DNA of 30,911 nt, from positions 1-30,911 of the forward strand of contig JAHLWH010000084.1 of the NCBI GenBank assembly GCA_019058015.1. Direction: 5' to 3'. Source of the DNA: Promethearchaeota archaeon (GTDB lineage Archaea > Asgardarchaeota > Lokiarchaeia > Sigyniarchaeales > SOKP01). The translations under genes and the position numbers were made by a program. The stretch's first letter is position 1. Each line of letters begins with the position of its first letter. The notes below the pieces were generated by a model. The model ran no database searches. It saw only the letters and a list, made by a program, of their open reading frames with translations, and was not told the origin of the DNA. Shown here one piece after another: positions 1 to 26,652 of the stretch.

Positions 1-2
1 GC

Positions 3-197
3 GGTGATCCTTTCTGGGACTGTAATTTGTGTACTCTTGCTGTTAGTGGAGGGTCGATCGTGGCGTGTGCGATAATACTTGTTGCTAGTATATATACGTT
101 TTCTTTCGATGTTTTTTTCTGGTGTATAGACGCTTTAGTATTGTTTGAAAACCTTTTCGGTGCTCTTTTTGTTTGTATAGCGTTAGGTTGTTGCTAA
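3..197 (+). CDS. C-terminal 64 aa of a Cys-rich hydrophobic protein, resembling a halocin C8-like archaeocin domain (5' partial, not in ORF track)
   Basis: Manual translation from base 3: GDPFWDCNLCTLAVSGGSIVACAIILVASIYTFSFDVFFWCIDALVLFENLFGALFVCIALGCC, then TAA TGA. It has 7 Cys, an N-side CxxC and a terminal CxxLGCC. Confidence 0.55.
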   Translation, partial: GDPFWDCNLCTLAVSGGSIVACAIILVASIYTFSFDVFFWCIDALVLFENLFGALFVCIALGCC

Positions 198-215
198 TGA
201 TATATTTGTAAATAG

Positions 216-689
216 GTGATTGTAATAAATACAAAAGAAAAGATCAAGAATTTTTGGAAAGCCTATAAGAAAAACAGTATATGGGTTAGTATTGGAAATT
301 GTATGGGCTTAACATTTATGAATTGGGTGTTATTTTATTTCGGAATTATAGATTTGATGATGGCGATCTTTCTTACAGTTTTGTTCCCACTAATGATATT
401 TTTCGTATATTATGGTAGAAAATCAAAACACAAATTGATCATTTTTAAAATAACATTGGTAGGAGGTTGCGGATATGTTTTCGGTCTTATTCTATGGATT
501 TTTCTCGGCTATGTACTTATTGCTGCTCCTTGGGCTCCCTTACGAATTTTGATTTTGGACGCAGTGTTAAGAGGTAGAATTTTCCTCCTCCTCCTACCTA
601 CTTTATGTGTAATTGCTGGATACATAATGTATAGAATAGGTAAAAAAAGAGAATGGAGACTTCCTTCGAGTGATTATTTTGAAAAATAA
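216..689 (+). CDS. Integral membrane protein (~4 TM), candidate immunity protein
   Basis: 157 aa with four hydrophobic segments and basic loops and tail (YRIGKKREWRLP). It starts 18 bp after the Cys-rich gene. The called GTG lies inside a GGTGA SD-like motif, so the true start may be a few codons later. Confidence 0.7.
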   Translation: MIVINTKEKIKNFWKAYKKNSIWVSIGNCMGLTFMNWVLFYFGIIDLMMAIFLTVLFPLMIFFVYYGRKSKHKLIIFKITLVGGCGYVFGLILWIFLGYVLIAAPWAPLRILILDAVLRGRIFLLLLPTLCVIAGYIMYRIGKKREWRLPSSDYFEK

Positions 690-705
690 AAATCTAAATT
701 TCTAC

Positions 706-715
706 TTTTTTTTTT
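706..715 (+). terminator. Oligo-T archaeal terminator candidate
   Basis: T10 run 16 bp after the stop of 216..689, in a convergent intergenic region. Confidence 0.45.
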
Positions 716-801
716 AATTATTTTAGAGTTAAAATAAAATTAAAAAAGGGATTTCTGTTATGGATTTTTGTCTTTTAGTAAATAAGATAAAAAATCGAAT
801 T

Positions 802-815
802 GAGACAATTGTCTC
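802..815. repeat. Perfect 14-bp palindrome GAGACAATTGTCTC
   Basis: Read directly. It lies between the two convergent transcription units. Confidence 0.8.
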
Positions 816-834
816 TTAACGATCTTAAAACTCT

Positions 835-1110
835 TTAATAGTAATGAAATAGATCGTCTTCTAGCTTCTCTTCTTTAGATTTCATATCTTTTCTAGGTGT
901 AAGCTTAACCTTTTTTTTTCCTTCTTTTAATTCCTTAATTATGTCTTGTTTTACTTCTTGTTTTAATTCACTCATAAAATCCTTAAACTCTTTCACTCCA
1001 TCGTCTAATTCTTCAGTATCCTCTTCAGATTCTTCTATTTCTTCAGATTCTTCTGACTCTTCATAATTTGAATCGTTAAACGTTACACTACATTCATACT
1101 CATTACTCAT
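835..1110 (-). CDS. Small hypothetical protein, acidic N-half (EESEESEEIEESEE) and basic C-half
   Basis: 91 aa ORF whose start overlaps the end of the upstream gene by 8 bp, suggesting translational coupling. Confidence 0.75.
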   Translation of the reverse strand: MSNEYECSVTFNDSNYEESEESEEIEESEEDTEELDDGVKEFKDFMSELKQEVKQDIIKELKEGKKKVKLTPRKDMKSKEEKLEDDLFHYY

Positions 1111-1381
1111 TTTTGAGTAGCTCTATTATTTCTTCTAATAAATCTAGAATTGAATCCAGCTTCTCGTTAAGGACGACTGAACTTACACTAGGTTTTTGAG
1201 TAAGAATAGGAGATTTCTCTACTTCAAATACCCAATTTTGCACATAGATTGTATCTGGTACGTCTGGTCTTATTCCTATTGCTTTCTTAGGATACCATTT
1301 TTTAGATCCATCTTTCAAAAGGTATTGACGAGCTTTCTCAGATTCTTTAATGGGAGCAATTATTTCAATCTTTTTGCTCAT
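1103..1381 (-). CDS. Small hypothetical protein with a virus-like ESEKA...WxPK...W motif and C-terminal Leu-rich helix
   Basis: The track starts it at 1399. ATG at 1381 (MSKKIEII) has GGAG upstream and overlaps the end of the RHH gene, so it is preferred. The motif resembles small phage proteins I recall; not verified. Confidence 0.7.
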   Translation of the reverse strand: MSKKIEIIAPIKESEKARQYLLKDGSKKWYPKKAIGIRPDVPDTIYVQNWVFEVEKSPILTQKPSVSSVVLNEKLDSILDLLEEIIELLKNE

Positions 1382-1550
1382 TCTTAAATCTCTCCACATT
1401 TAGAATCATAAAAAAACTCGGATCGTTATCCATATCTCTCTGGACTAATCCAGTGATATACTCCTTAATTGGGACGTCTCTATAAGCACAAAACCTCTTC
1501 AATTTGTTCTTAAACGCTCTACTTACGTTAATTGTTGCAAATTCTGATAT
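1365..1550 (-). CDS. Ribbon-helix-helix (CopG/ParG-like) DNA-binding protein, 61 aa, apparent ATA start (not in ORF track)
   Basis: Manual translation: ISEFATINVSRAFKNKLKRFCAYRDVPIKEYITGLVQRDMDNDPSFFMILNVERFKNEQKD*. TINVS strand plus two helices fit the RHH pattern. It fills the 1381-1552 gap exactly and has AAGGAG 7 nt upstream of the ATA. Confidence 0.65.
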   Translation of the reverse strand: MSEFATINVSRAFKNKLKRFCAYRDVPIKEYITGLVQRDMDNDPSFFMILNVERFKNEQKD

Positions 1551-1551
1551 T

Positions 1552-2040
1552 TTAAATCTCCTTTACTTTCTTAAATTTGAATTTTGAATCAGGTATTAGT
1601 TCCGCTTTATCAATTGGACGACTTCCTATTTGGTGATTCCATTTACTTTTTGAGAGCTTGAATAATTCCTTTCTTCTATACGTTCCGCTACTTTTTACCT
1701 TTTCAGCTTCCTTAAGAGCTTTCTTTACAGCTTTAGGAACTTCTTTCTTTACTCGTTCATATAACTCTGGTAATCTCTTTAGCTCTTTCGCTAGCAATTT
1801 ATTCTCTACTTCAAGCTTTAATATTGTAGCTTCAAGATCACTAAGCATATTGTAAAATATGAGAGGATCTAAAACCTTAAGATCTAGCTTCCTAGCTATG
1901 TCATCTAAAAGTACTTTAATCTCCCAAACGCCATCATTAGGATCTAAGAATCTAGTACTATGTAATCGTTGTAATGTATCTAATCTTAGAAGATCAAGCT
2001 CTATATCGAGTTTTAATTCTTTCTTTTGTTCATAATTCAT
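1552..2040 (-). CDS. Hypothetical coiled-coil protein with basic C-terminus
   Basis: 162 aa, ATG start with AGGTG upstream, heptad Leu pattern (LEATILKLEVENKLLAKELKRL). First gene of a four-gene operon. Confidence 0.8.
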   Translation of the reverse strand: MNYEQKKELKLDIELDLLRLDTLQRLHSTRFLDPNDGVWEIKVLLDDIARKLDLKVLDPLIFYNMLSDLEATILKLEVENKLLAKELKRLPELYERVKKEVPKAVKKALKEAEKVKSSGTYRRKELFKLSKSKWNHQIGSRPIDKAELIPDSKFKFKKVKEI

Positions 2041-2128
2041 ACTTGTTGTTACACCTTGTTGTTTGTATTTTAATTAATTTAATGTGAGTAGTAATAATTA
2101 TTATCTCTATGAGAAAATGTTTCTTAAA

Positions 2129-3062: not shown

Positions 3063-4130
3063 TTAAATATATTTTTTAGCAATTAAATATTCAGCAGATA
3101 AAACTCCACCTCGCCCTGCGCCTAACTCAGTATTATGACTAAGAACAGTAAATTTTAATCCGTTAGTAAAATTCGTCTTTTCTATTCCACCAACATAAGT
3201 TATCATCCCCGTTTTTTCATTCCCTTTATTCTCAAGGTCGATTCTTGGTTGAGGTCGATAAGGGTCATCGAAAACCTTTATTGGGTGTTCAGGAGCATTT
3301 GGTAAATCTAGACCGGCTGTTTGTCCTTCAAAATCTCTCAATGTTTGTTTAATTTCTTCAATATCTTCAAATTCCTTAACTGTTTCTATAAAAACACTTT
3401 CCATATGACCATTTATAGAGGGTACTCGATTACACTTACAATCGATTAAAAATTCAAGATCATGTATTTTATCCTCAATTATTGTACCAAAAATCTTCTT
3501 AATCTCTCTCATTACTTTTCTTTCCTCCCTTTCTATATGAGGAATAACATTTGCAACTATGTCATAGCTAGCAACACCAGGATAACCTGCTCCTGTAATT
3601 GCTTGCATGGAAACCATATGAACACTTTTAATACCATATTTTTTTAAAATAGGATATAATGAAATTGCCAATCCGATAGCTGTGCAATTAGGACCAGGAA
3701 CAATAAAACCTTTCCACCCACGTTTCTTTTTTTGAATATCTAAAATTCTATAATGCTCTCCATTAACAATAGGTAAAAAAATTGGAACATCTTCTTCATA
3801 TCTATAAGTAGCTGCTGTACTTATCACAGGTTTACTTGTTGCAATTTCACCCTCAATCTCTCGAGCATACCCTGAAGGAATTGCAGAAAAAACAATGTCA
3901 ATTGAATTTAGATCTAAATCTTTAATATCAGTAACTGTCATTTCTTTTATTTCCTCTGGATATTTATAACTCGTAAAGCCCCTGATTGATTCCCCAAATT
4001 TTTTGCCAATCGAGGCGTGTCCATGCAATGATATGATTTCAAACCAAGGATGTCCTATTAATGCTTCCATAAACTGTTGTCCCGCCATTCCAGTAGCTCC
4101 AATTACACTCGCTCTATATTTTTTAGGCAT
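3063..4130 (-). CDS. asd: Aspartate-semialdehyde dehydrogenase, archaeal type
   Basis: GATGMAGQ Rossmann motif, catalytic PNCT, SMQAITGAG, CNRVP..GHME and SHNTELGAG. Confidence 0.9.
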   Translation of the reverse strand: MPKKYRASVIGATGMAGQQFMEALIGHPWFEIISLHGHASIGKKFGESIRGFTSYKYPEEIKEMTVTDIKDLDLNSIDIVFSAIPSGYAREIEGEIATSKPVISTAATYRYEEDVPIFLPIVNGEHYRILDIQKKKRGWKGFIVPGPNCTAIGLAISLYPILKKYGIKSVHMVSMQAITGAGYPGVASYDIVANVIPHIEREERKVMREIKKIFGTIIEDKIHDLEFLIDCKCNRVPSINGHMESVFIETVKEFEDIEEIKQTLRDFEGQTAGLDLPNAPEHPIKVFDDPYRPQPRIDLENKGNEKTGMITYVGGIEKTNFTNGLKFTVLSHNTELGAGRGGVLSAEYLIAKKYI

Positions 4131-4315
4131 AATTCTTCTCTACTCAAATTTGAACTTAATAAAATTTAAAAAATACTATATTATTTTATTTTTGAAGAAA
4201 ATATTTAAAACTTATTTTCTATTTATATTATTAGCAAAAATTTCTAACTGGGTTAAATTAAATCTCTTAAAAATTTTCCCAATTTAGTGTGAATTTTTGA
4301 AAGATTGAGGTATAG

Positions 4316-4840
4316 GTGATAAAGATAGTAGATTCCATAGCACTTCTTGAATCACAAGCTGAAGCATTTGAAAATAAAGCAAAAATAGAGATGAGAAAAA
4401 AGAATTACGGAGAAGCCATCTTATTTTTTGAAGAGGCTGTAGATATCTATCTCAAATTAAATTGGGATGGAAAAATAAAGATGTTAGAAAAAACAATTGA
4501 ACGTCTTCAAAACGTTATTGGGTTTGAAAACAACAATCACTTAAACTCTGATTTTATCAATATTAAGCAAGAAATAGAGAATAAATCAAATAATCTAACC
4601 AAAACACAAGAAGTACCAGAAGAAATTAAACAGAAACTTGCAAAAATCGAAATGCTCGAAAGAAAAGCAGATAATGATGAGATACAAGGGAATTTGAAAA
4701 GAAGTTTTGATAGGTATCAATTAATCTTGGAATTAACAACTGATATAAATTCTTTAGAACAATTTAATTTTGAAAATAAAATTGTAGGAATTAAAGAGAA
4801 AATAAATAAATTGACTGAAAGATTAAAGTCCAATTTATAA
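4316..4840 (+). CDS. Alpha-helical TPR-like repeat protein
   Basis: 174 aa with two helical-hairpin units (KKNYGEAILFFEEAVDIY; GNLKRSFDRYQLILEL). GAGGT lies upstream of the GTG. Confidence 0.65.
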   Translation: MIKIVDSIALLESQAEAFENKAKIEMRKKNYGEAILFFEEAVDIYLKLNWDGKIKMLEKTIERLQNVIGFENNNHLNSDFINIKQEIENKSNNLTKTQEVPEEIKQKLAKIEMLERKADNDEIQGNLKRSFDRYQLILELTTDINSLEQFNFENKIVGIKEKINKLTERLKSNL

Positions 4841-4881
4841 AAAAAAATTTATTCTTTGTGTTCTTTAATATTTTAGATATA

Positions 4882-5913
4882 ATGATTAATCCTTTCGCAA
4901 ATTTTTATCGTGTCCCGACATCTCAAGAACTTCTAGATATTGCTTTTAGTAGAGCTATGAAAAGTAGTGCGGCAGTATCAAAAAATGCCCCTAAAATATT
5001 AAAAGCAAGAAAAAAAGAAATTAAAAGAATTCAAGTCGCAATCAAAGAAATTATAGATAGAATATTAAAAATTATTAAAATGGTCCCGATTATCCAGGAA
5101 ATACCCGAATTCTATCGAGAATTGGCCTCATTAATCGTTAATACTGATGAATTAAGACTATCTCTAGGAAAATTAAATGGTATATTGCCTATCTTAAGTA
5201 AAATTGAAAAAGATTATAAAACTCGAATTAAAAATTCAGAAATCCCCAAAGAAGCTGCGAAATATAGACGAGCAGTATTTGGAAGAATATCTTCAATAAT
5301 AAACAAACAAAGAAAAAGTTTAAATTATTTAAATGAAATTAGAGGAGAATTAAGAAGAATACCCTCTATTGATTATGAAATTCCTTCAATAGTTATTGCC
5401 GGATATCCTAATGTAGGAAAGAGTAGTCTTGTAAGATTAATTTCGTCAGGAAAACCAGATGTTCAACCATATCCTTTCACAACTAAAAAGATCATTATCG
5501 GACATCATATAGTAGAAAAAAACTATGATATGACTAAACTCCAAATAATTGATACTCCAGGGATCTTGGATAGACCTATGTTAAAAAGAAATAAGATTGA
5601 ATTGCAAGCAATACTAGCTCTAAACTTGATTTCTGATGTTATAATTTTCATATTTGACCCTACTCCAGCTTGCGGATATGATATTGATTGTCAGGTGGAT
5701 TTATATTATGAAATTTGTGATAATTTCTCCAAAGATGGCAAAATACCAATTATCATAGTTTTTAATAAAATGGATCTGGCTAATGAGGAGGAAATTCAAT
5801 TTTTAAAGAATAAATTAAATTTAAATAAAAATGATTTTTTTCTAATTAATGCTTTAATAAAGGATGAAAATGTAAAAGAACTACTTGAATTCGTAATAAA
5901 TAAATTGATATAA
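4882..5913 (+). CDS. NOG1-family (Obg superfamily) GTP-binding protein
   Basis: N-terminal ELLDIAFSRA helix domain, G1 GYPNVGKSS, G2 YPFTTK, G3 DTPGILDRP, G4 NKMD. ATG 4882 (MINPF) is preferred over GTG 4858. Confidence 0.92.
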   Translation: MINPFANFYRVPTSQELLDIAFSRAMKSSAAVSKNAPKILKARKKEIKRIQVAIKEIIDRILKIIKMVPIIQEIPEFYRELASLIVNTDELRLSLGKLNGILPILSKIEKDYKTRIKNSEIPKEAAKYRRAVFGRISSIINKQRKSLNYLNEIRGELRRIPSIDYEIPSIVIAGYPNVGKSSLVRLISSGKPDVQPYPFTTKKIIIGHHIVEKNYDMTKLQIIDTPGILDRPMLKRNKIELQAILALNLISDVIIFIFDPTPACGYDIDCQVDLYYEICDNFSKDGKIPIIIVFNKMDLANEEEIQFLKNKLNLNKNDFFLINALIKDENVKELLEFVINKLI

Positions 5914-5983: not shown

Positions 5984-7288
5984 ATGAGAAAAATAAATGT
6001 ATTTTCGATATATCAAAAACCCATTACTATCCTTAAAACAATGCAACTAGAAATTAAATCACTTTACAAAAGTTTTTTTAATTTTGTTATTTGGGATGTC
6101 ATTAAACCATTATTTAGTGGATTATCAATTAATATTCCTTATAATGAATTAAAAAAATCTGTTGGTAAGGTTTTTGTGGAGGGAGCTTTACATTATAAAG
6201 TCAATTACGACAATATTTTGGAAATATTAAAAAAATCTAATCTCCCAAGTGCTACTATAGATTATATTATTGATTTATTATCAAAATTTGCTAACCAATT
6301 AGATAGTTACTTCTTAAAAAACGTAAATGATATAAATTCAGTATATAAAGGTAAAGAGCTCGAGAATATTTTACATGATTTTAATAATATTATTAATGAA
6401 TACATCTTAATTTCCTATTTCGATTTAATCGTATTAAAACAAGCAACTTCTTTACTCGTTTATGCATCTGATCTTTCCTTAGCAGATATATATCGATGCA
6501 GAATGGAATTTACAGAGCTACTTAGATCAGCTTTAATTAAAGATTCATCGTTAATAATTGCGGAACTACTAGAATCGATAAGAGAAAAATTGAGTAGTAT
6601 TACTGATAACGAAAAAATAATTAATTTAATTATGATTCAATTAGCTAGTTTTTTTGAGTGGTTAGTATCTTCTGATGATTTTAACACAATTATTCCCATA
6701 ATGAAGGAAATTCTCTCGCATGAAGTTATTAATTACCATCAAGTTTCTTCATTAATTCCATCTAATAATGTAAATATTATAACTGAATGGTTAAAACAAC
6801 AGGTAATTGAATTACCAATAATTCTTTTACAAAAATCATTATCTAATGATTTCACATATGAATGTGAGAACTTAAAACATGATATTTTAGAGATTTTCAA
6901 ATTATTTATAAACGGAACAATAACATATGATATTCTCGAAAAGAGATTACAAGAAGTTGGAAAAAAATTAGGTTTGGAAAAATTATATAAAATTGAAGAA
7001 AATATTTTTGAATTTTTAGAATTAGATCAATCCCTAGATTTAGTGAAATCTTACACTATTCAAAAGATACGCACAAAATTCAACTTTATTTTACCAAGAT
7101 TTCAAAAACGAGAAAATGATCAAAAATATATTGAACAAGTAAATTTTATCATTCTTTATCAAATTTACAATAATAGTTTAACCTATTGTAAGTTTATTGA
7201 AGAAGAAAAAGCCATTGACCCATCATTAAAAAGATTAATCCAATATATTAAGAGCAAGATTCAAATTACCGAGACTTTATATATCTAG
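5984..7288 (+). CDS. Hypothetical all-alpha protein
   Basis: 434 aa ORF, Leu/Ile-rich amphipathic helices, no recognisable motif. The start may be ATG 6041. Confidence 0.7.
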   Translation: MRKINVFSIYQKPITILKTMQLEIKSLYKSFFNFVIWDVIKPLFSGLSINIPYNELKKSVGKVFVEGALHYKVNYDNILEILKKSNLPSATIDYIIDLLSKFANQLDSYFLKNVNDINSVYKGKELENILHDFNNIINEYILISYFDLIVLKQATSLLVYASDLSLADIYRCRMEFTELLRSALIKDSSLIIAELLESIREKLSSITDNEKIINLIMIQLASFFEWLVSSDDFNTIIPIMKEILSHEVINYHQVSSLIPSNNVNIITEWLKQQVIELPIILLQKSLSNDFTYECENLKHDILEIFKLFINGTITYDILEKRLQEVGKKLGLEKLYKIEENIFEFLELDQSLDLVKSYTIQKIRTKFNFILPRFQKRENDQKYIEQVNFIILYQIYNNSLTYCKFIEEEKAIDPSLKRLIQYIKSKIQITETLYI

Positions 7289-7362
7289 ATGATGATTCTT
7301 TTTTTAATTTCACAATGGCTATAAAAAATTAAAATATTTTTTGTGAATAGTTGAAAATATAA

Positions 7363-8445
7363 ATGACAGACAAGAAATATTTGTTAGGACTTGACATTGG
7401 AGGGGTAAATACTAAAGCCGCGCTAGTGGAATTTGATAATAAAACATTAAGCAAAATTCTTACTGCTATTAGGTATTACCCATTTTGGGAAAAAACCATA
7501 AAAGAATTACCTAATATGCTAAGAAATTTAAGCACACAACTGTTAGAAAAGAGTAATATTGATATCGATGATATAAATAAAATTGCAGTTACTATTACAG
7601 CCGAGTTGTCTGACGCTTTTCAAACTAAAAGGGAAGGGATTCAAACCATCTTAAAGGCGCTAAAAAGAGTCTTCGAGTCAGATAAAATAATGGTGATCAA
7701 CAATCAAAATATATTCCTTAAAGTTCAAGATGCGTTTGAAAATTATCTAAAAGTTGCTGGAGCAAATTGGGTTGCAACAGCTCTATTTATCGGCTTTTAT
7801 AAGCCGGAATGTATTTTAATTGATGCTGGTTCAACAACTATTGATCTTATCCCGATTAAATATGGAAAACCTCAAACAATTGGTAAAGATGATGTTTCAA
7901 GAATAATGAATCACGAATTAATTTATACTGGTGCTTTAAGAGCAACCATTCCCTCAATAACTCATTTTGTTCCATTTAAGGGAAAAAATTGTAGAATTTC
8001 ATTTGAAAAGTTTGCATTAATTGCAGATGTTCATCGCATTTTAGGGCATATTACCGAAGAGGAATATACTTGTGATACCGCAGATGATCGTTCTAAGTCC
8101 TTTGATAATTGCTATGCTCGACTTTCACGTATTATATGCAGTGATTTAGAGCAAATTACAAAAGATGAGTTGAATTCAATTGCCAACTATATATATCAAG
8201 CTCAGCTTAAAATTATTATGGATGAAATTCAATTGTTTATGAAACAAACATCTTATAGACTGCCAGATTTAACGAAAAATCCATTATTTATTACAACGGG
8301 TTTAGGTGAGACATTTTTAATAAATACTGCGCTAAAAAATTTGGGATATAATAATATGGTAAGCTTTTCAGACATAATCAAGTTTCCAGATAACGTGATA
8401 TCCTCCGCTATTGCTGTTGCGGGGGCATTAAATCTATTTATATAA
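7363..8445 (+). CDS. mfnF: Methanofuran biosynthesis protein MfnF (hydantoinase A / H4MPT-linked C1 transfer family)
   Basis: LGLDIGGVNTK, TITAELSDAFQTKREGI, ANWVATA, IDAGSTTIDLIPI, ELIYTGALR, CDTAD and RLSRIICSD. Adjacent to an MfnE-like gene. Confidence 0.85.
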   Translation: MTDKKYLLGLDIGGVNTKAALVEFDNKTLSKILTAIRYYPFWEKTIKELPNMLRNLSTQLLEKSNIDIDDINKIAVTITAELSDAFQTKREGIQTILKALKRVFESDKIMVINNQNIFLKVQDAFENYLKVAGANWVATALFIGFYKPECILIDAGSTTIDLIPIKYGKPQTIGKDDVSRIMNHELIYTGALRATIPSITHFVPFKGKNCRISFEKFALIADVHRILGHITEEEYTCDTADDRSKSFDNCYARLSRIICSDLEQITKDELNSIANYIYQAQLKIIMDEIQLFMKQTSYRLPDLTKNPLFITTGLGETFLINTALKNLGYNNMVSFSDIIKFPDNVISSAIAVAGALNLFI

Positions 8446-19984: not shown

Positions 19985-20848
19985 TTAATTTTTTTCTTTT
20001 AATTTTATTATGAATCTATAAACAGAACCCCACATATAATCATCTTCTCTTTCTTTTACCTCGAAGTTATTGGTATGTAACCAGTTTTTTAAAGCTTCCT
20101 TTGTTTTATTATTATAATCTCCAGTGATTTCTCCTTCATAGAATCCATCGATTTTTAAAATCTCTTTTACGGTTTTCATCATATCTCCCTCTAACTTGAT
20201 AATGTCGTTGGGATCATCTCTTTGAAGCAAGCACATATCGTAAATCTCAAACACTTTTCGCAGCTCATTGAGGGGATTAGGGTTCTCATCAACTCGAATG
20301 TTAATATATCTATCTGTACCTCCATCATATGCACCTTTCTCTTTTACTATTAGAATTGCAGCTGATTCTCGACCTCTCTTATCACCACCCTGTTCTTGTC
20401 CGGCTTCTAATGTGGCAAATAGTTTTTCTATCAAATCACCCTTAGTCTCCAGAAATGCCTTTGACATTGCTGATACGACCCTTTCTGAAGCTAAAATATT
20501 TCCTTGGCATGCATGGTTTTTTCCGATTATATGTCCCGCCCAATCAAAGCATTCTTTTCCGGTAAATGATGCTGTGTTACCATAAGAATCTACAACACCT
20601 ACCTGTCTTTGTTCTTTTAGATCATCATGCTCAATCAATTTTTCAATCGTTTCTTCAGCTGTGAGACCCTCTTTAAGTAATGATAATCCCTTAGGACCAT
20701 AACTGGTATTAGCATAAGCTTGAGTTGCAATTGCTCCAACACCTGCCTTTGCAAATGGGACTATTGCTCCTACAGCAACAAATTTTGATTGAACTGCAAC
20801 ACCCCATTCATTATTTTTTGGGTCATATGCCACAATTGAAAATGTCAT
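19985..20848 (-). CDS. DUF1028 Ntn-hydrolase-family protein with C-terminal peptidoglycan-binding-like helical domain
   Basis: MTFSIVA start (ATG 20848), GVAVQS, GAIATQA, RQVGVVD, QGNILA, GGDKRGRESAA and IRVDE..P..EL motifs. Confidence 0.88.
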   Translation of the reverse strand: MTFSIVAYDPKNNEWGVAVQSKFVAVGAIVPFAKAGVGAIATQAYANTSYGPKGLSLLKEGLTAEETIEKLIEHDDLKEQRQVGVVDSYGNTASFTGKECFDWAGHIIGKNHACQGNILASERVVSAMSKAFLETKGDLIEKLFATLEAGQEQGGDKRGRESAAILIVKEKGAYDGGTDRYINIRVDENPNPLNELRKVFEIYDMCLLQRDDPNDIIKLEGDMMKTVKEILKIDGFYEGEITGDYNNKTKEALKNWLHTNNFEVKEREDDYMWGSVYRFIIKLKEKN

Positions 20849-21011
20849 AATAAATTTCATTTATTTTATTAGATCATATTTTAAAAATGAAATTATACTT
20901 TAAAGAAGTAGCATTAAATATTGGTTAAAAGTTATTTTGATGAATTTTAATAATATCAATACAGAAAACTAGATTTTTACTATTTATTATTTTATCTTTG
21001 GAGTGATTTAG

Positions 21012-24849: not shown

Positions 24850-26652
24850 TTAATTAGAATAATATTTCGAAATAAGGGAATCTATTATTTTTTCATTTAA
24901 ATCAAATAAAGTAAAAATTAATTTATCAATATCTCTTTTATATAATTCTATTTTTCCTAAATCTTGCAAGGAATTGGTAATTAATTCTTTTGAAAGTTTT
25001 CGAATAATTTTATAAATGTCTCTTTTTTCTTGAGTCTTAAGATTCTCATAACTGATAATAGGTATCTCATTTTCAAGCTTACTTTTGGATCTTTTAATTT
25101 CTAATCCTTTCGCGTAAAAAATGAATTTCATTAATTTAGAATTTAAATAGGCAATTAAAAAAAGATAATCCGCTTTCTTTCCATCATTGTGTAAAAAATA
25201 GGTATCTGATGTGGCATAAAAAGGAACTCTTGCAAATCCAAATACATTTTCCTTTGAAATATAGGAAAAAAATATTTTCTTTTGGTTCTCATAATAAGGT
25301 TCTAAGTATTCAATTCCACTTTTATTTCTCAAGTTATGAATTTTAAAACCACGTCTTGGAAATAGCCAATTTCTTGGAGATTCTTTGCATTTAATTAAGG
25401 TGTTTTTCAGTTCATCTTCAAATTGATATAAATATCTCATTAAAACCGGGTATTTTTTATCTGGGTTAAAATTATCAGATTGAAATTCAATCTTATCAAA
25501 AAATATCATCCATCCTAAATAATCATCTTCAATAAAACCATACGGACGAATGGCTCTTCCTTTATATATTTTCTTCAAGCGATTTTTTTCAAATTCATTT
25601 AGTTTTAAATGATCTTTTTCTATTTTGAGGAAAAAATCTCCATTTTTTCTAATGATATCCTCATTTTCCTTCAAAATAAATATTCTATCTTTAATAGAAA
25701 TTATACCATTTCTTATTTGAAAGAAATCTTTTAGATAAATAACTTTCCCACTCTCATTTTTACATGTATTCTCGATTTTATCTATAATTACTTTTACCTC
25801 CCAAGGAAAAAGAAGATTCCAACTCCCATTTTTTTTCAAATTTTGATTTGTTATCGCACTATCATAAGATATACAGTTAAGATCAGCAGATTGGAAAATA
25901 GAATTACAATCTTGAAATTTCGAGCTGTTCTTGAATTGAATAATTTTAATTTTTTTATCTATTTTATTTGTTTTTTCCTCGTTGTTTTTCTTTTGTAAGA
26001 TGAAAATGCAATTATCCTGCCCCGGAGCGTCTTTAAAAACTTTCAAATTTGATAAATCTACATAAGTCTTGAGAAAACATTCTTCTATAATATGGGGTTT
26101 TAATTTTGCAACACCTGTTTTTTCTCCCTTTTTTATCCAATAATTCGTCGTAATGAAGCATAATAAACCTCCAGGTCTTAATTTTCGAATACCTAAATGA
26201 AGAAACCAGTAAAATAAATCCATATTTCCACAAAAAAACTCTTTACAAATTGGATATTTACGAATGTAACCTTGGAATATTTCTGAAGCATAATTTTGTC
26301 CAAGATAAGGAGGGTTTCCTATTATTAAATCATATTTTTCCTCTTCACTTGATTCTAAAAAATTAGAATTTTTTAATTTAATATTGTTTCCAAATTTATT
26401 TTTTAGCATATTATAATAATATTTATCAATTTCAAACGCTGTAATGTTTTTAAAACCATATTCGATGAGTGTTTCAAGAAAAGCACCATCGCCAGCCGCA
26501 GGTTCTAAAAGAGATAAATTTAAAACTATAAAATCATCCAATTTATTCTCCTCTTTAAACTCCTCCATTACCAAATTTACCATAAATTCGGTAATCGAGG
26601 TGGAGGTAAAATATTGACCAAAGTTTTGTTTCTGACTGGCTTTTAAAGTCAT
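24850..26652 (-). CDS. Gamma-class N6-adenine DNA methyltransferase (Eco57I/TaqI-like) with target-recognition domain, no nuclease domain
   Basis: GQYFT (motif X), LEPAAGDGAF (motif I), IIGNPPY (motif IV), DLFYWF and the TaqI_C-like YLNSKL region. Confidence 0.88.
   Translation of the reverse strand: MTLKASQKQNFGQYFTSTSITEFMVNLVMEEFKEENKLDDFIVLNLSLLEPAAGDGAFLETLIEYGFKNITAFEIDKYYYNMLKNKFGNNIKLKNSNFLESSEEEKYDLIIGNPPYLGQNYASEIFQGYIRKYPICKEFFCGNMDLFYWFLHLGIRKLRPGGLLCFITTNYWIKKGEKTGVAKLKPHIIEECFLKTYVDLSNLKVFKDAPGQDNCIFILQKKNNEEKTNKIDKKIKIIQFKNSSKFQDCNSIFQSADLNCISYDSAITNQNLKKNGSWNLLFPWEVKVIIDKIENTCKNESGKVIYLKDFFQIRNGIISIKDRIFILKENEDIIRKNGDFFLKIEKDHLKLNEFEKNRLKKIYKGRAIRPYGFIEDDYLGWMIFFDKIEFQSDNFNPDKKYPVLMRYLYQFEDELKNTLIKCKESPRNWLFPRRGFKIHNLRNKSGIEYLEPYYENQKKIFFSYISKENVFGFARVPFYATSDTYFLHNDGKKADYLFLIAYLNSKLMKFIFYAKGLEIKRSKSKLENEIPIISYENLKTQEKRDIYKIIRKLSKELITNSLQDLGKIELYKRDIDKLIFTLFDLNEKIIDSLISKYYSN

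Follow-up and report, generated by a model that had tools for sequence, protein, structure and literature searches.

A recombining cysteine-rich tail and an adjacent four-helix membrane protein in Promethearchaeota: a possible polymorphic toxin and immunity module

Background

Polymorphic toxins reportedly share a set of general features laid out by Zhang, Aravind and co-workers in 2012 and in the literature on contact-dependent growth inhibition (CDI), and the classical examples carry functionally diverse C-termini. Among archaeal peptide antibiotics (archaeocins), halocin C8 is presumably a cysteine-rich peptide. Here we analyse a locus at the edge of a 30,911-nucleotide (nt) stretch of DNA (contig JAHLWH010000084.1), the whole of which is called the window, in which a frame encoding a hydrophobic, cysteine-rich C-terminal tail is followed by an open reading frame (ORF; 216..689) for a 157-amino-acid (aa) membrane protein with four putative transmembrane segments (the 4-TM gene). 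Judged from sequence, the anatomy is that of a polymorphic toxin locus with orphan cassettes, in Promethearchaeota, which are listed as an archaeal phylum in the taxonomy copy used and whose name we take to be the formal one for the Asgard/Loki lineage.

According to a preprint (bioRxiv 10.64898/2026.07.27.741052), the halocin C8 precursor of Natrinema, ProC8, is a 283-aa protein exported by the twin-arginine translocation (Tat) pathway; mature halocin C8, of 76 aa, is cut from its C-terminus; the N-terminus of the same precursor is the immunity part, HalI; and halC8 is flanked by a regulator gene and by genes of an ATP-binding cassette (ABC) transporter. Almost nothing is known of competition or recognition among Asgard archaea, whose cell-cell contacts are central to ideas about the origin of eukaryotes. 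A literature search returned no description of the protein family that carries the tail or of a toxin/immunity system in Lokiarchaeia; the survey of archaeal toxins by Makarova et al. (2019) lay outside the scope of that search.

Results

A paired tail frame and membrane protein gene

The locus consists of the following features.

1..23, + strand: 3' part of the conserved junction, GGC GGT GAT CCT TTC TGG GAC TGT (Gly-Gly-Asp-Pro-x-Trp-Asp-Cys), where the body and linker of the protein meet its variable tail
3..197, + strand: cysteine-rich hydrophobic C-terminal tail module, 64 codons plus TAA, open at its 5' end; predicted two-helix membrane hairpin with 7 cysteines
198..215, + strand: 18-nt spacer from the tail stop to the 4-TM start, read from the sequence
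216..689, + strand: 4-TM gene for the 157-aa membrane protein, identified by hydropathy and homologues; candidate cognate partner or immunity protein of the tail
706..715, + strand: run of ten T (T10), a likely archaeal terminator, at the 3' end of the unit common to the window and locus L001

The tail frame is stop-free from the edge of the window (3..194, with TAA at 195..197) and reads GDPFWDCNLC...CIALGCC; the remainder of the precursor, 5' of this frame, lies outside the window. A 64-codon frame would stay open by chance with P about 0.005 at the base composition of the window (G+C about 30%), and cysteine accounts for 7 of the 64 residues as against 1.1% in 25 other window ORFs (binomial P = 6e-6). 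Scanning an alignment of the 4-TM protein against one genome per species yielded 22 related loci (L001 to L022), one of which, L001, has a homologue of the 64-aa frame at the same place (58% identity, tblastn E = 4e-24); this match is the independent support for the frame, the score of the window tail against the tail profile (E = 2e-24) having come from a profile that contains the window's own row. Because the open frame and the cysteine excess are both improbable and both ORFs have homologues, chance is excluded for the pair. Coordinates, chance estimates and homologues thus bear out the cysteine-rich frame, the 18-bp gap, the 4-TM gene and the T10 run reported by the first-pass annotation, which had read them as a halocin C8-like archaeocin and its immunity gene on a mobile element.

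The GTG at 216 is taken as the start of the 4-TM gene because the aligned position is ATG in the 4-TM genes of L001 and L002. By a simple hydropathy calculation the tail has two hydrophobic stretches and the 157-aa protein several overlapping ones, interpreted as four segments; the N- and C-termini of the latter are basic, and a basic loop separates its segments 2 and 3; the basic ends and loop suggest that both termini are cytoplasmic. The DNA that the window shares with L001 (blastn) is confined to 3..717, at 86.8% identity, with no similarity past the T-run. At the other end of the unit, the junction GGxTGxTTTGGxGGTGAxCC...TGGGAyTGT is kept among cassettes that differ downstream of it (DNA alignment of the window, L001, L002, L006a, L020a).

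The tail ends an exported rhodanese protein

Searched with tblastn, the 64-aa frame is found in L001 directly 5' of the 4-TM gene and also in L002, L006, L020 and L014; read back to the previous stop, these frames give proteins of about 470 aa that end in the tail. The carrier proteins are built, in order, of a signal peptide, a rhodanese domain, a beta-rich domain, two long helices, a Gly/Pro linker, the motif GCFGGDP.WDC and the cysteine-rich two-helix tail, with about 250 residues between the rhodanese domain and the Gly/Pro run. Only the DNA surrounding 4-TM homologues yielded the full-length relatives; none of the 72 candidates from a word-based comparison of the 64-aa frame with longer proteins reached E <= 0.01, a scan of the window tail against NCBIfam at E <= 1 matched no family, and comparison of the tail with sequence profiles of the Protein Data Bank (PDB) gave one chance-level match, to glutaredoxin (E = 0.54).

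The rhodanese family PF00581 is matched in L001 (4570..5979, E = 6.6e-17), L002 (4594..5979, E = 5e-15) and L014 (7537..8952, E = 2e-16), and in 52 of 52 relatives scanned against Pfam. Of the 73 long family members, 69 keep its active-site loop, CxxGxR, and the domain is apparently of the active type; the body of the window's own protein lies outside the window, and its rhodanese domain is presumed from the relatives. On these 52 full-length relatives, Pfam (E <= 1) and NCBIfam (E <= 0.1) returned only or mainly rhodanese families, among them a weak match of the rhodanese domain to the NCBIfam family 'rhodanese/DsbD fusion-like'. Inspected by eye, the N-termini in L001, L002 and L014 are rich in lysine, lack a twin arginine and have a hydrophobic core and a V-x-A site followed by EEQ, and they look like Sec-type rather than Tat signals. 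A search with the L001 protein returned 103 proteins, about 95 of them true relatives, with names that include Thorarchaeota, Njordarchaeota and one metagenome-assembled genome of Bacteroidota.

An AlphaFold2 model of the L001 protein from a 52-row alignment (mean predicted local distance difference test score, pLDDT, 81.8) places the rhodanese domain at residues 42-145 and, after it, a long meander of beta-strands (150-312), a pair of long helices (318-368), a disordered linker (386-407) and the two helices of the tail (408-437 and 440-466). Compared with PDB folds, the full model matched only rhodanese domains, that of Escherichia coli YgaP among them. Modelled alone, the middle domain (residues 150-390, L001:5017-5739) reaches a pLDDT of 88.5 and again gives a beta meander and two long helices, and it has no PDB fold match at E <= 0.001; look-ups of this domain and of the 4-TM protein in the Protein Atlas led only to unnamed clusters scoring < 0.9. 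N-x-S/T sequons in the middle domain are kept in the family consensus.

Tails are exchanged at the linker

Cysteine-rich tails are a property of the whole family: at least 6 cysteines occur in the last 65 aa of 69 of the 73 members of at least 430 aa (median 10, range 6-13), and cysteine makes up 15.4% of these last 65 residues against 1.8% of the body. Three tail columns, C10, C22 and C41, are invariant in 29 aligned tails. The tails are otherwise highly diverse, falling into 31 clusters at >= 45% identity among 52 members (shuffled-tail baseline 25.7 +/- 4.5%), and their identity is nearly independent of that of the bodies (r = 0.16 over 1326 pairs). Tails fall below 30% identity in 18 of 40 pairs with bodies at least 80% identical and in 58 of 82 pairs with bodies 70-80% identical; the pair P0197/P0202 has 95% identical bodies and 28% identical tails, P0133/P0140 has 90% and 24%, and P0132/P0183 is the converse case, with tails 72% and bodies 48% identical. 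In pairwise alignments (P0133/P0140, P0180/P0190, P0197/P0202, P0153/P0154) near-identity extends up to the Gly/Pro linker and is absent beyond it, the drop spanning a few residues. The alignments indicate that the tail is replaced by recombination at the conserved junction next to the linker, because point mutation cannot yield tails at the baseline level on bodies that are 90-95% identical.

Against 1.84 billion representative sequences, the profile of the window-type tail gives only 14 hits, most of them fragments of the carrier family. One of the 14, P0118, is a repeat protein and looks spurious. In another, P0115 (260 aa), the N-terminal part is a coiled coil rich in Lys and Glu that lacks a signal peptide, and the window-type tail follows it with the join exactly at GCFGGDP; this protein is either a second carrier of the tail module or the read-through of an orphan cassette. 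A tail anchor of the CYSTM type and C-terminal prenylation were considered and rejected, there being no Pfam match and the C-terminal endings differing between tail classes.

The number of cysteines in the last 75 aa is even in 49 of 69 members, and their positions are roughly symmetric about a central, Pro-containing turn. These two weaker observations would suit disulfide or persulfide stapling of the hairpin, possibly aided by the rhodanese domain in cis. By eye, several unrelated tail classes (GGDPFWDC, CTPDPFC, CDPALGDC, CGDPLCL) show an Asp-Pro dipeptide, often preceded by Gly-Gly, immediately ahead of their first hydrophobic helix; it is a possible cleavage or demarcation motif.

Tails and 4-TM genes travel as cassettes

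Profiles of the body, the tail and the 4-TM protein were run over six-frame translations of all loci. Every tail-profile hit with E < 0.01 (13 of 13, comprising seven rows used to build the profile and six independent ones) is immediately followed, on the same strand, by a 4-TM gene, and all nine complete tails in the loci have a 4-TM gene about 20-75 nt downstream. Conversely, 28 of the 31 4-TM genes, window included, can be assessed for what precedes them, and a tail or its 3' remnant stands directly upstream of 18 of these 28. The 31 genes are distributed as follows.

6 genes: a complete tail ending a long ORF upstream
3 genes: a complete stand-alone tail upstream
9 genes: a 3' tail remnant of 15-35 codons, ending ..GCC or ..CP, upstream
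2 genes: a weak nucleotide signal only (nhmmer) upstream
8 genes: no tail trace upstream
3 genes: too close to a contig end for assessment

The 3' remnants, which include the spacer, were found with nhmmer and tail-plus-spacer DNA in L019, L004, L010, L018, L008, L012, L009, L007 and L016. The first-pass annotation had raised the question whether homologues of the 157-aa protein consistently follow cysteine-rich secreted proteins with variable C-termini, and the profile searches of the loci give a positive answer. Several loci hold arrays.

L006 and L020: body-tail, 4-TM gene, about 520 nt, stand-alone tail, 4-TM gene
L014: 4-TM gene, 4-TM gene, body-tail, 4-TM gene
L004, L007, L018 and L022: tandem 4-TM genes
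L008: truncated body N-terminus and a 4-TM fragment, then an intact 4-TM gene

Stand-alone tails are present in L006, L020 and L007, and the one in L020 has no ATG, GTG or TTG ahead of its CxxC. The L006 and L020 loci are 99-100% identical in DNA (1..2100 and 1..2060, respectively) through the end of the body, the first tail, the first 4-TM gene and the orphan tail, whereas their second 4-TM genes share only 75% DNA identity, as if recombination had taken place between the orphan tail and the second 4-TM gene. In the orphan tail of L006, Tyr replaces a conserved Cys.

Tail type and 4-TM type correspond. Tails of the 12-cysteine type (L006a, L020a, L007a, L014) precede a divergent 'B' type of 4-TM protein in four of four cases, and window-type tails precede the 'A' type in five of five; between L001 and L014 identity is 76% in the body, 30% in the tail and 44% in the 4-TM protein. 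L002 carries in addition an orphan (6852..7439, + strand) made of the last third of a body and a cysteine-rich tail of another class, ending ..EECIDWCLEIY. Convergent to it is an ORF of 151 aa (7466..7918, - strand) that is unrelated to the 4-TM family, has four hydrophobic segments and basic ends, and is a possible partner of that other tail class. A prediction of the complex of tail and 4-TM protein, both supplied as alignments, scored 0.00 in a run without controls and speaks neither for nor against binding.

The 4-TM protein family

Of 142 candidates, 111 are homologues of the 157-aa protein at E <= 0.001; few are named, Lokiarchaeota among them. Its invariant motifs are APWAPL and Y..Y..GKKR.W, and across 32 aligned sequences invariance is confined to K, F, W, L, G, Y, P, A and R, with no invariant column of Cys, His, Ser, Asp or Glu. 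Such a protein, lacking an invariant residue of catalytic type, fits a binder and not an enzyme. Pfam and NCBIfam give nothing that reaches any family's curated cut-off; Pfam at E <= 10 gives only sub-threshold, unrelated families, with no colicin or bacteriocin immunity family among them; PDB sequence profiles give no hit at E <= 1; and PHROGs and PADLOC give no match. Several genomes have 2 to 5 copies of the 4-TM gene and fewer intact tails, as is the case with orphan immunity genes.

Genomic setting

The labels of 15 of the 22 related loci are Promethearchaeota or Promethearchaeia, in keeping with the Asgard origin that had been thought probable for the window; six are 'uncultured archaeon' and one is Nanopelagicaceae. 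The last of these, L009 (DATKTW010000091.1, labelled Candidatus Nanopelagicaceae bacterium), has a typical 4-TM gene and tail remnant like those of the Promethearchaeota loci, and the contig is probably mis-binned.

Flanking genes differ from locus to locus and are mostly housekeeping genes, including those for SecY, ribosomal protein L10, the thermosome, eIF2-gamma, NOG1 and CDC48; no neighbour is conserved across the loci, and their large ORFs of unknown function do not match one another. An ABC transporter ATPase and a 276-aa membrane ORF, together at 3402..5276 (+ strand), lie just 5' of the tandem 4-TM array in L004. The window likewise holds archaeal housekeeping genes (aspartate-semialdehyde dehydrogenase, NOG1 GTPase, CDC48, CobN and others), and none of its ORFs besides the tail and the 4-TM gene matches any of the 22 loci. 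A scan of window ORFs with family models found no integrase or transposase family, a search of the window found no tRNA, and PHROGs and PADLOC gave nothing for the first seven ORFs of the window bar one chance-level match; the mobile element proposed earlier finds no footing in this setting of housekeeping genes.

Other features of the window are three or four small ORFs at 835..2040 (- strand) for proteins of 91 aa (very acidic), 98 aa, 45 aa and 162 aa (coiled-coil-like), for which Pfam, NCBIfam, PHROGs and PADLOC gave no noteworthy family and the related loci no counterpart; a DUF1028 domain fused to PG_binding_2 (19985..20860, - strand, E = 2e-16), a peptidoglycan-binding domain unexpected in an archaeon that is expected to lack peptidoglycan; and an Eco57I-type methylase with a TaqI-like specificity domain (24850..26652, - strand), likely a type IIG restriction-modification enzyme.

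Discussion

An exported body, a module that recombines at a sharp junction, a small gene paired with it and a record of orphan cassettes together argue for a toxin, or identity, reading of the tail, with the 4-TM protein as its neutraliser. The interpretation that we put forward, tentatively and as one that falls a little short of probable, is that the tail is a polymorphic toxin module directed at membranes and the 4-TM protein the membrane-bound immunity protein cognate to it. The tail hairpin is swapped by recombination at the linker junction and travels with the downstream 4-TM gene. In the producer and its kin the 4-TM protein would bind the hairpin inside the membrane and neutralise it; in a neighbour without a matching 4-TM protein the hairpin would damage the membrane, having been delivered by cleavage near the Gly-Gly/Asp-Pro junction, by contact or in vesicles. 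The rhodanese domain in cis may help to oxidise or persulfidate the tail cysteines. Start-less displaced tails and intact orphan 4-TM genes would be the leftovers of earlier cassette replacements, the orphan 4-TM genes being kept because they protect against the tails of neighbours.

Several observations weigh against this interpretation. All tails are of one physico-chemical kind, hydrophobic and cysteine-rich, which fits a membrane anchor too; a conserved and apparently active rhodanese is an odd carrier for a toxin; and neither the tail and its relatives nor the 4-TM protein matches a known toxin or immunity family in Pfam or NCBIfam. Conservation in the 4-TM protein is highest in the cytoplasmic C-terminal tail, which is unexpected for immunity exerted purely within the membrane, and 8 of the 28 assessable 4-TM genes are those lacking an upstream tail trace. 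Pairing is not strict, the L006b and L020b tails, both start-less copies, being 97% identical and the 4-TM proteins that follow them 61%. A Mantel test of tail end against 4-TM protein gives a weak correlation (r = 0.27, reached by 181 of 5000 permutations), which is little informative because adjacent genes would correlate anyway and shared ancestry confounds it. The one neighbour inspected for tail classes other than that of the window, L002 7466..7918, is unrelated to the 4-TM family and convergent to its tail. The ratio of nonsynonymous to synonymous substitution rates (dN/dS) between the window and L001 is about 0.9 for the 64 codons of the tail and about 0.7 for the 4-TM gene, and 2.2 for the last 34 tail codons, where very few sites contribute; these estimates span 34-154 codons and are indicative only.

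The chief alternative, which we consider unlikely, is an anchor that has a dedicated partner. The tail would then be the C-terminal anchor of an extracellular sulfurtransferase and the 4-TM protein its membrane partner, the two possibly forming a six-helix unit for anchoring, assembly, or thiol/sulfur relay, and weak constraint, together with gene conversion between the many paralogues, would account for the variety of tails, which would play no part in conflict. Consistent with this, the tail presents two hydrophobic helices after a stalk-like Gly/Pro linker and would be the sole anchor left once the signal peptide is cleaved; the rhodanese invariants are retained; the tails share a single physico-chemical character; the weak 'rhodanese/DsbD fusion-like' match points in the same direction; and a rhodanese domain with membrane helices has a precedent in YgaP, whose rhodanese domain is among the fold matches and whose helices are cited from general knowledge. 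Weak constraint, however, cannot explain baseline tails on bodies 90-95% identical with a sharp breakpoint; an anchor requires neither ten cysteines nor a private partner gene for each tail type and has no use for start-less tails before intact 4-TM genes or for 4-TM genes kept after the tail is lost; and a relay would want invariant cysteines, of which the 4-TM protein has none. The first-pass annotation had named a known housekeeping membrane or surface protein anchored by this segment as one outcome that would count against its proposal: the carrier is indeed a rhodanese-containing protein of the surface, for which the segment could be the anchor, but it is not a known housekeeping protein, and its tail recombines like a cassette, as a plain anchor would not. 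Distinctly less likely, in our judgement, is recognition of identity or kin without killing, in which hairpin and 4-TM protein would fit as lock and key when neighbouring membranes meet. It draws on the same polymorphism, cassettes and pairing as the toxin interpretation, the variable parts of both partners are membrane helices, and an inward signal could pass through the conserved cytoplasmic tail of the 4-TM protein; the data do not separate recognition from killing, but orphan 4-TM genes are easier to explain as protection, the loci have no conserved neighbours and no signalling partner is linked to them.

Two further explanations are very hard to sustain. That the tail serves as a C-terminal sorting signal processed by the 4-TM protein, the two making up a new pair of the sortase kind, is very improbable, even though the tail lies at the C-terminus after a linker, has a conserved GCFGGDP.WDC before its first helix and stands beside a small membrane protein. 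Archaeosortase signals such as PGF-CTERM consist of a short motif, one membrane helix and a basic cluster, and a single enzyme with a catalytic Cys/Arg or Ser/His set serves many substrates. The tail, by comparison, has two helices and ends in GCC with no terminal basic cluster; each tail is paired with a 4-TM gene of its own, of which a genome holds several paralogues, and not with a single enzyme shared by many substrates; Cys, His, Ser, Asp and Glu are absent from the invariant residues of the 4-TM protein; and no NCBIfam sorting-signal or sortase model matched the tail or the 52 relatives. Hardly credible now is the original proposal, a mobile element carrying an archaeocin precursor of the halocin C8 type and, apart from it, an immunity gene. 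A hydrophobic C-terminal peptide of 60-70 aa with 7-13 cysteines on a secreted precursor does resemble the 76-aa mature halocin C8 described in the preprint, but no family model other than rhodanese matches the tail or the 52 relatives, and the N-terminus of relatives is of the Sec type and not twin-arginine. The halocin C8 domain model TIGR04449 is absent among the 25 of 34 NCBIfam families listed for these relatives, and Hac8_like_N (PF22862) has no Pfam match in L001, L002 and L014 (E <= 1) or in the 52 relatives, provided in each case that the library includes the model. In the preprint the immunity part of ProC8 is the N-terminus of the precursor itself and not a downstream gene, and the flanks here are housekeeping genes with no mobile-element genes among them. 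The kinship with halocin C8 is thereby given up. The cysteine-rich proteins of PMC11529989 are viral, nuclease-like and unrelated.

More broadly, the locus may, as a still tentative possibility, represent an Asgard polymorphic, cassette-swapping system of antagonism or self/non-self discrimination, in which the specificity of a membrane hairpin is read by a four-helix protein and a rhodanese in cis matures the cysteines. If so, the archaeal relatives of eukaryotes would have their first defined system of conflict or recognition, and toxin/immunity specificity embedded in the membrane would make up a new class. A toxin and immunity function would extend the logic of polymorphic toxins to the Asgard lineage and add a new type of membrane-acting peptide; an anchor with its partner would instead be an unusual, rapidly swapped membrane module on a conserved extracellular sulfurtransferase that has a domain of no known fold. 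The locus offers a concrete pair, a hairpin of about 60 aa and a membrane protein of 157 aa, with many natural alleles, orphan copies and clear junctions.

Comparison with known systems

With halocin C8, as the preprint presents it, the Asgard carrier shares a small, hydrophobic, cysteine-rich C-terminal peptide on an exported precursor, a likeness of composition and position only. ProC8 is exported by Tat, whereas the carrier appears to be of the Sec type; ProC8 holds its immunity part within the precursor, whereas here a body of ~400 aa, made of rhodanese and beta domains, is accompanied by a separate candidate immunity gene; and the window has nothing that corresponds to the ABC transporter genes beside halC8.

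Among membrane systems, E. coli YgaP, as generally described, resembles the carrier in joining a rhodanese domain to a two-helix C-terminal membrane hairpin; unlike the carrier, it faces the cytoplasm and has no signal peptide, beta-domain, cysteine-richness, polymorphism or linked partner gene. Pore-forming colicins and the membrane-acting effectors of CDI and type VI secretion systems are known for a C-terminal hydrophobic hairpin that enters membranes and a small multi-helix membrane protein, encoded beside it, that neutralises it within the bilayer, an arrangement that the tail and the 4-TM protein would share. Colicin immunity proteins have 3-4 membrane helices and no homology with the 4-TM protein in Pfam at E <= 10, and the colicin module is a ten-helix bundle of ~200 aa, whereas the tail has about 60 aa and is rich in cysteine. 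Compared by description only, IdsD and IdsE of Proteus mirabilis place specificity in variable membrane segments of two partners, as would be the case here; they depend on type VI delivery, and no such system is present here.

In organization the locus resembles CdiA-CT/CdiI and Rhs-CT/RhsI, as these are commonly portrayed: there as here, a conserved secreted body carries a hypervariable C-terminal module beyond a sharp junction in conserved DNA, a small type-matched gene follows directly downstream, and arrays of displaced 3' fragments and partner genes are found. The Asgard locus differs in its host, in its apparently Sec-exported rhodanese carrier and in having no dedicated secretion system; its modules are all cysteine-rich membrane hairpins and not diverse enzymes, and toxicity and immunity are here conjectured from the shared anatomy.

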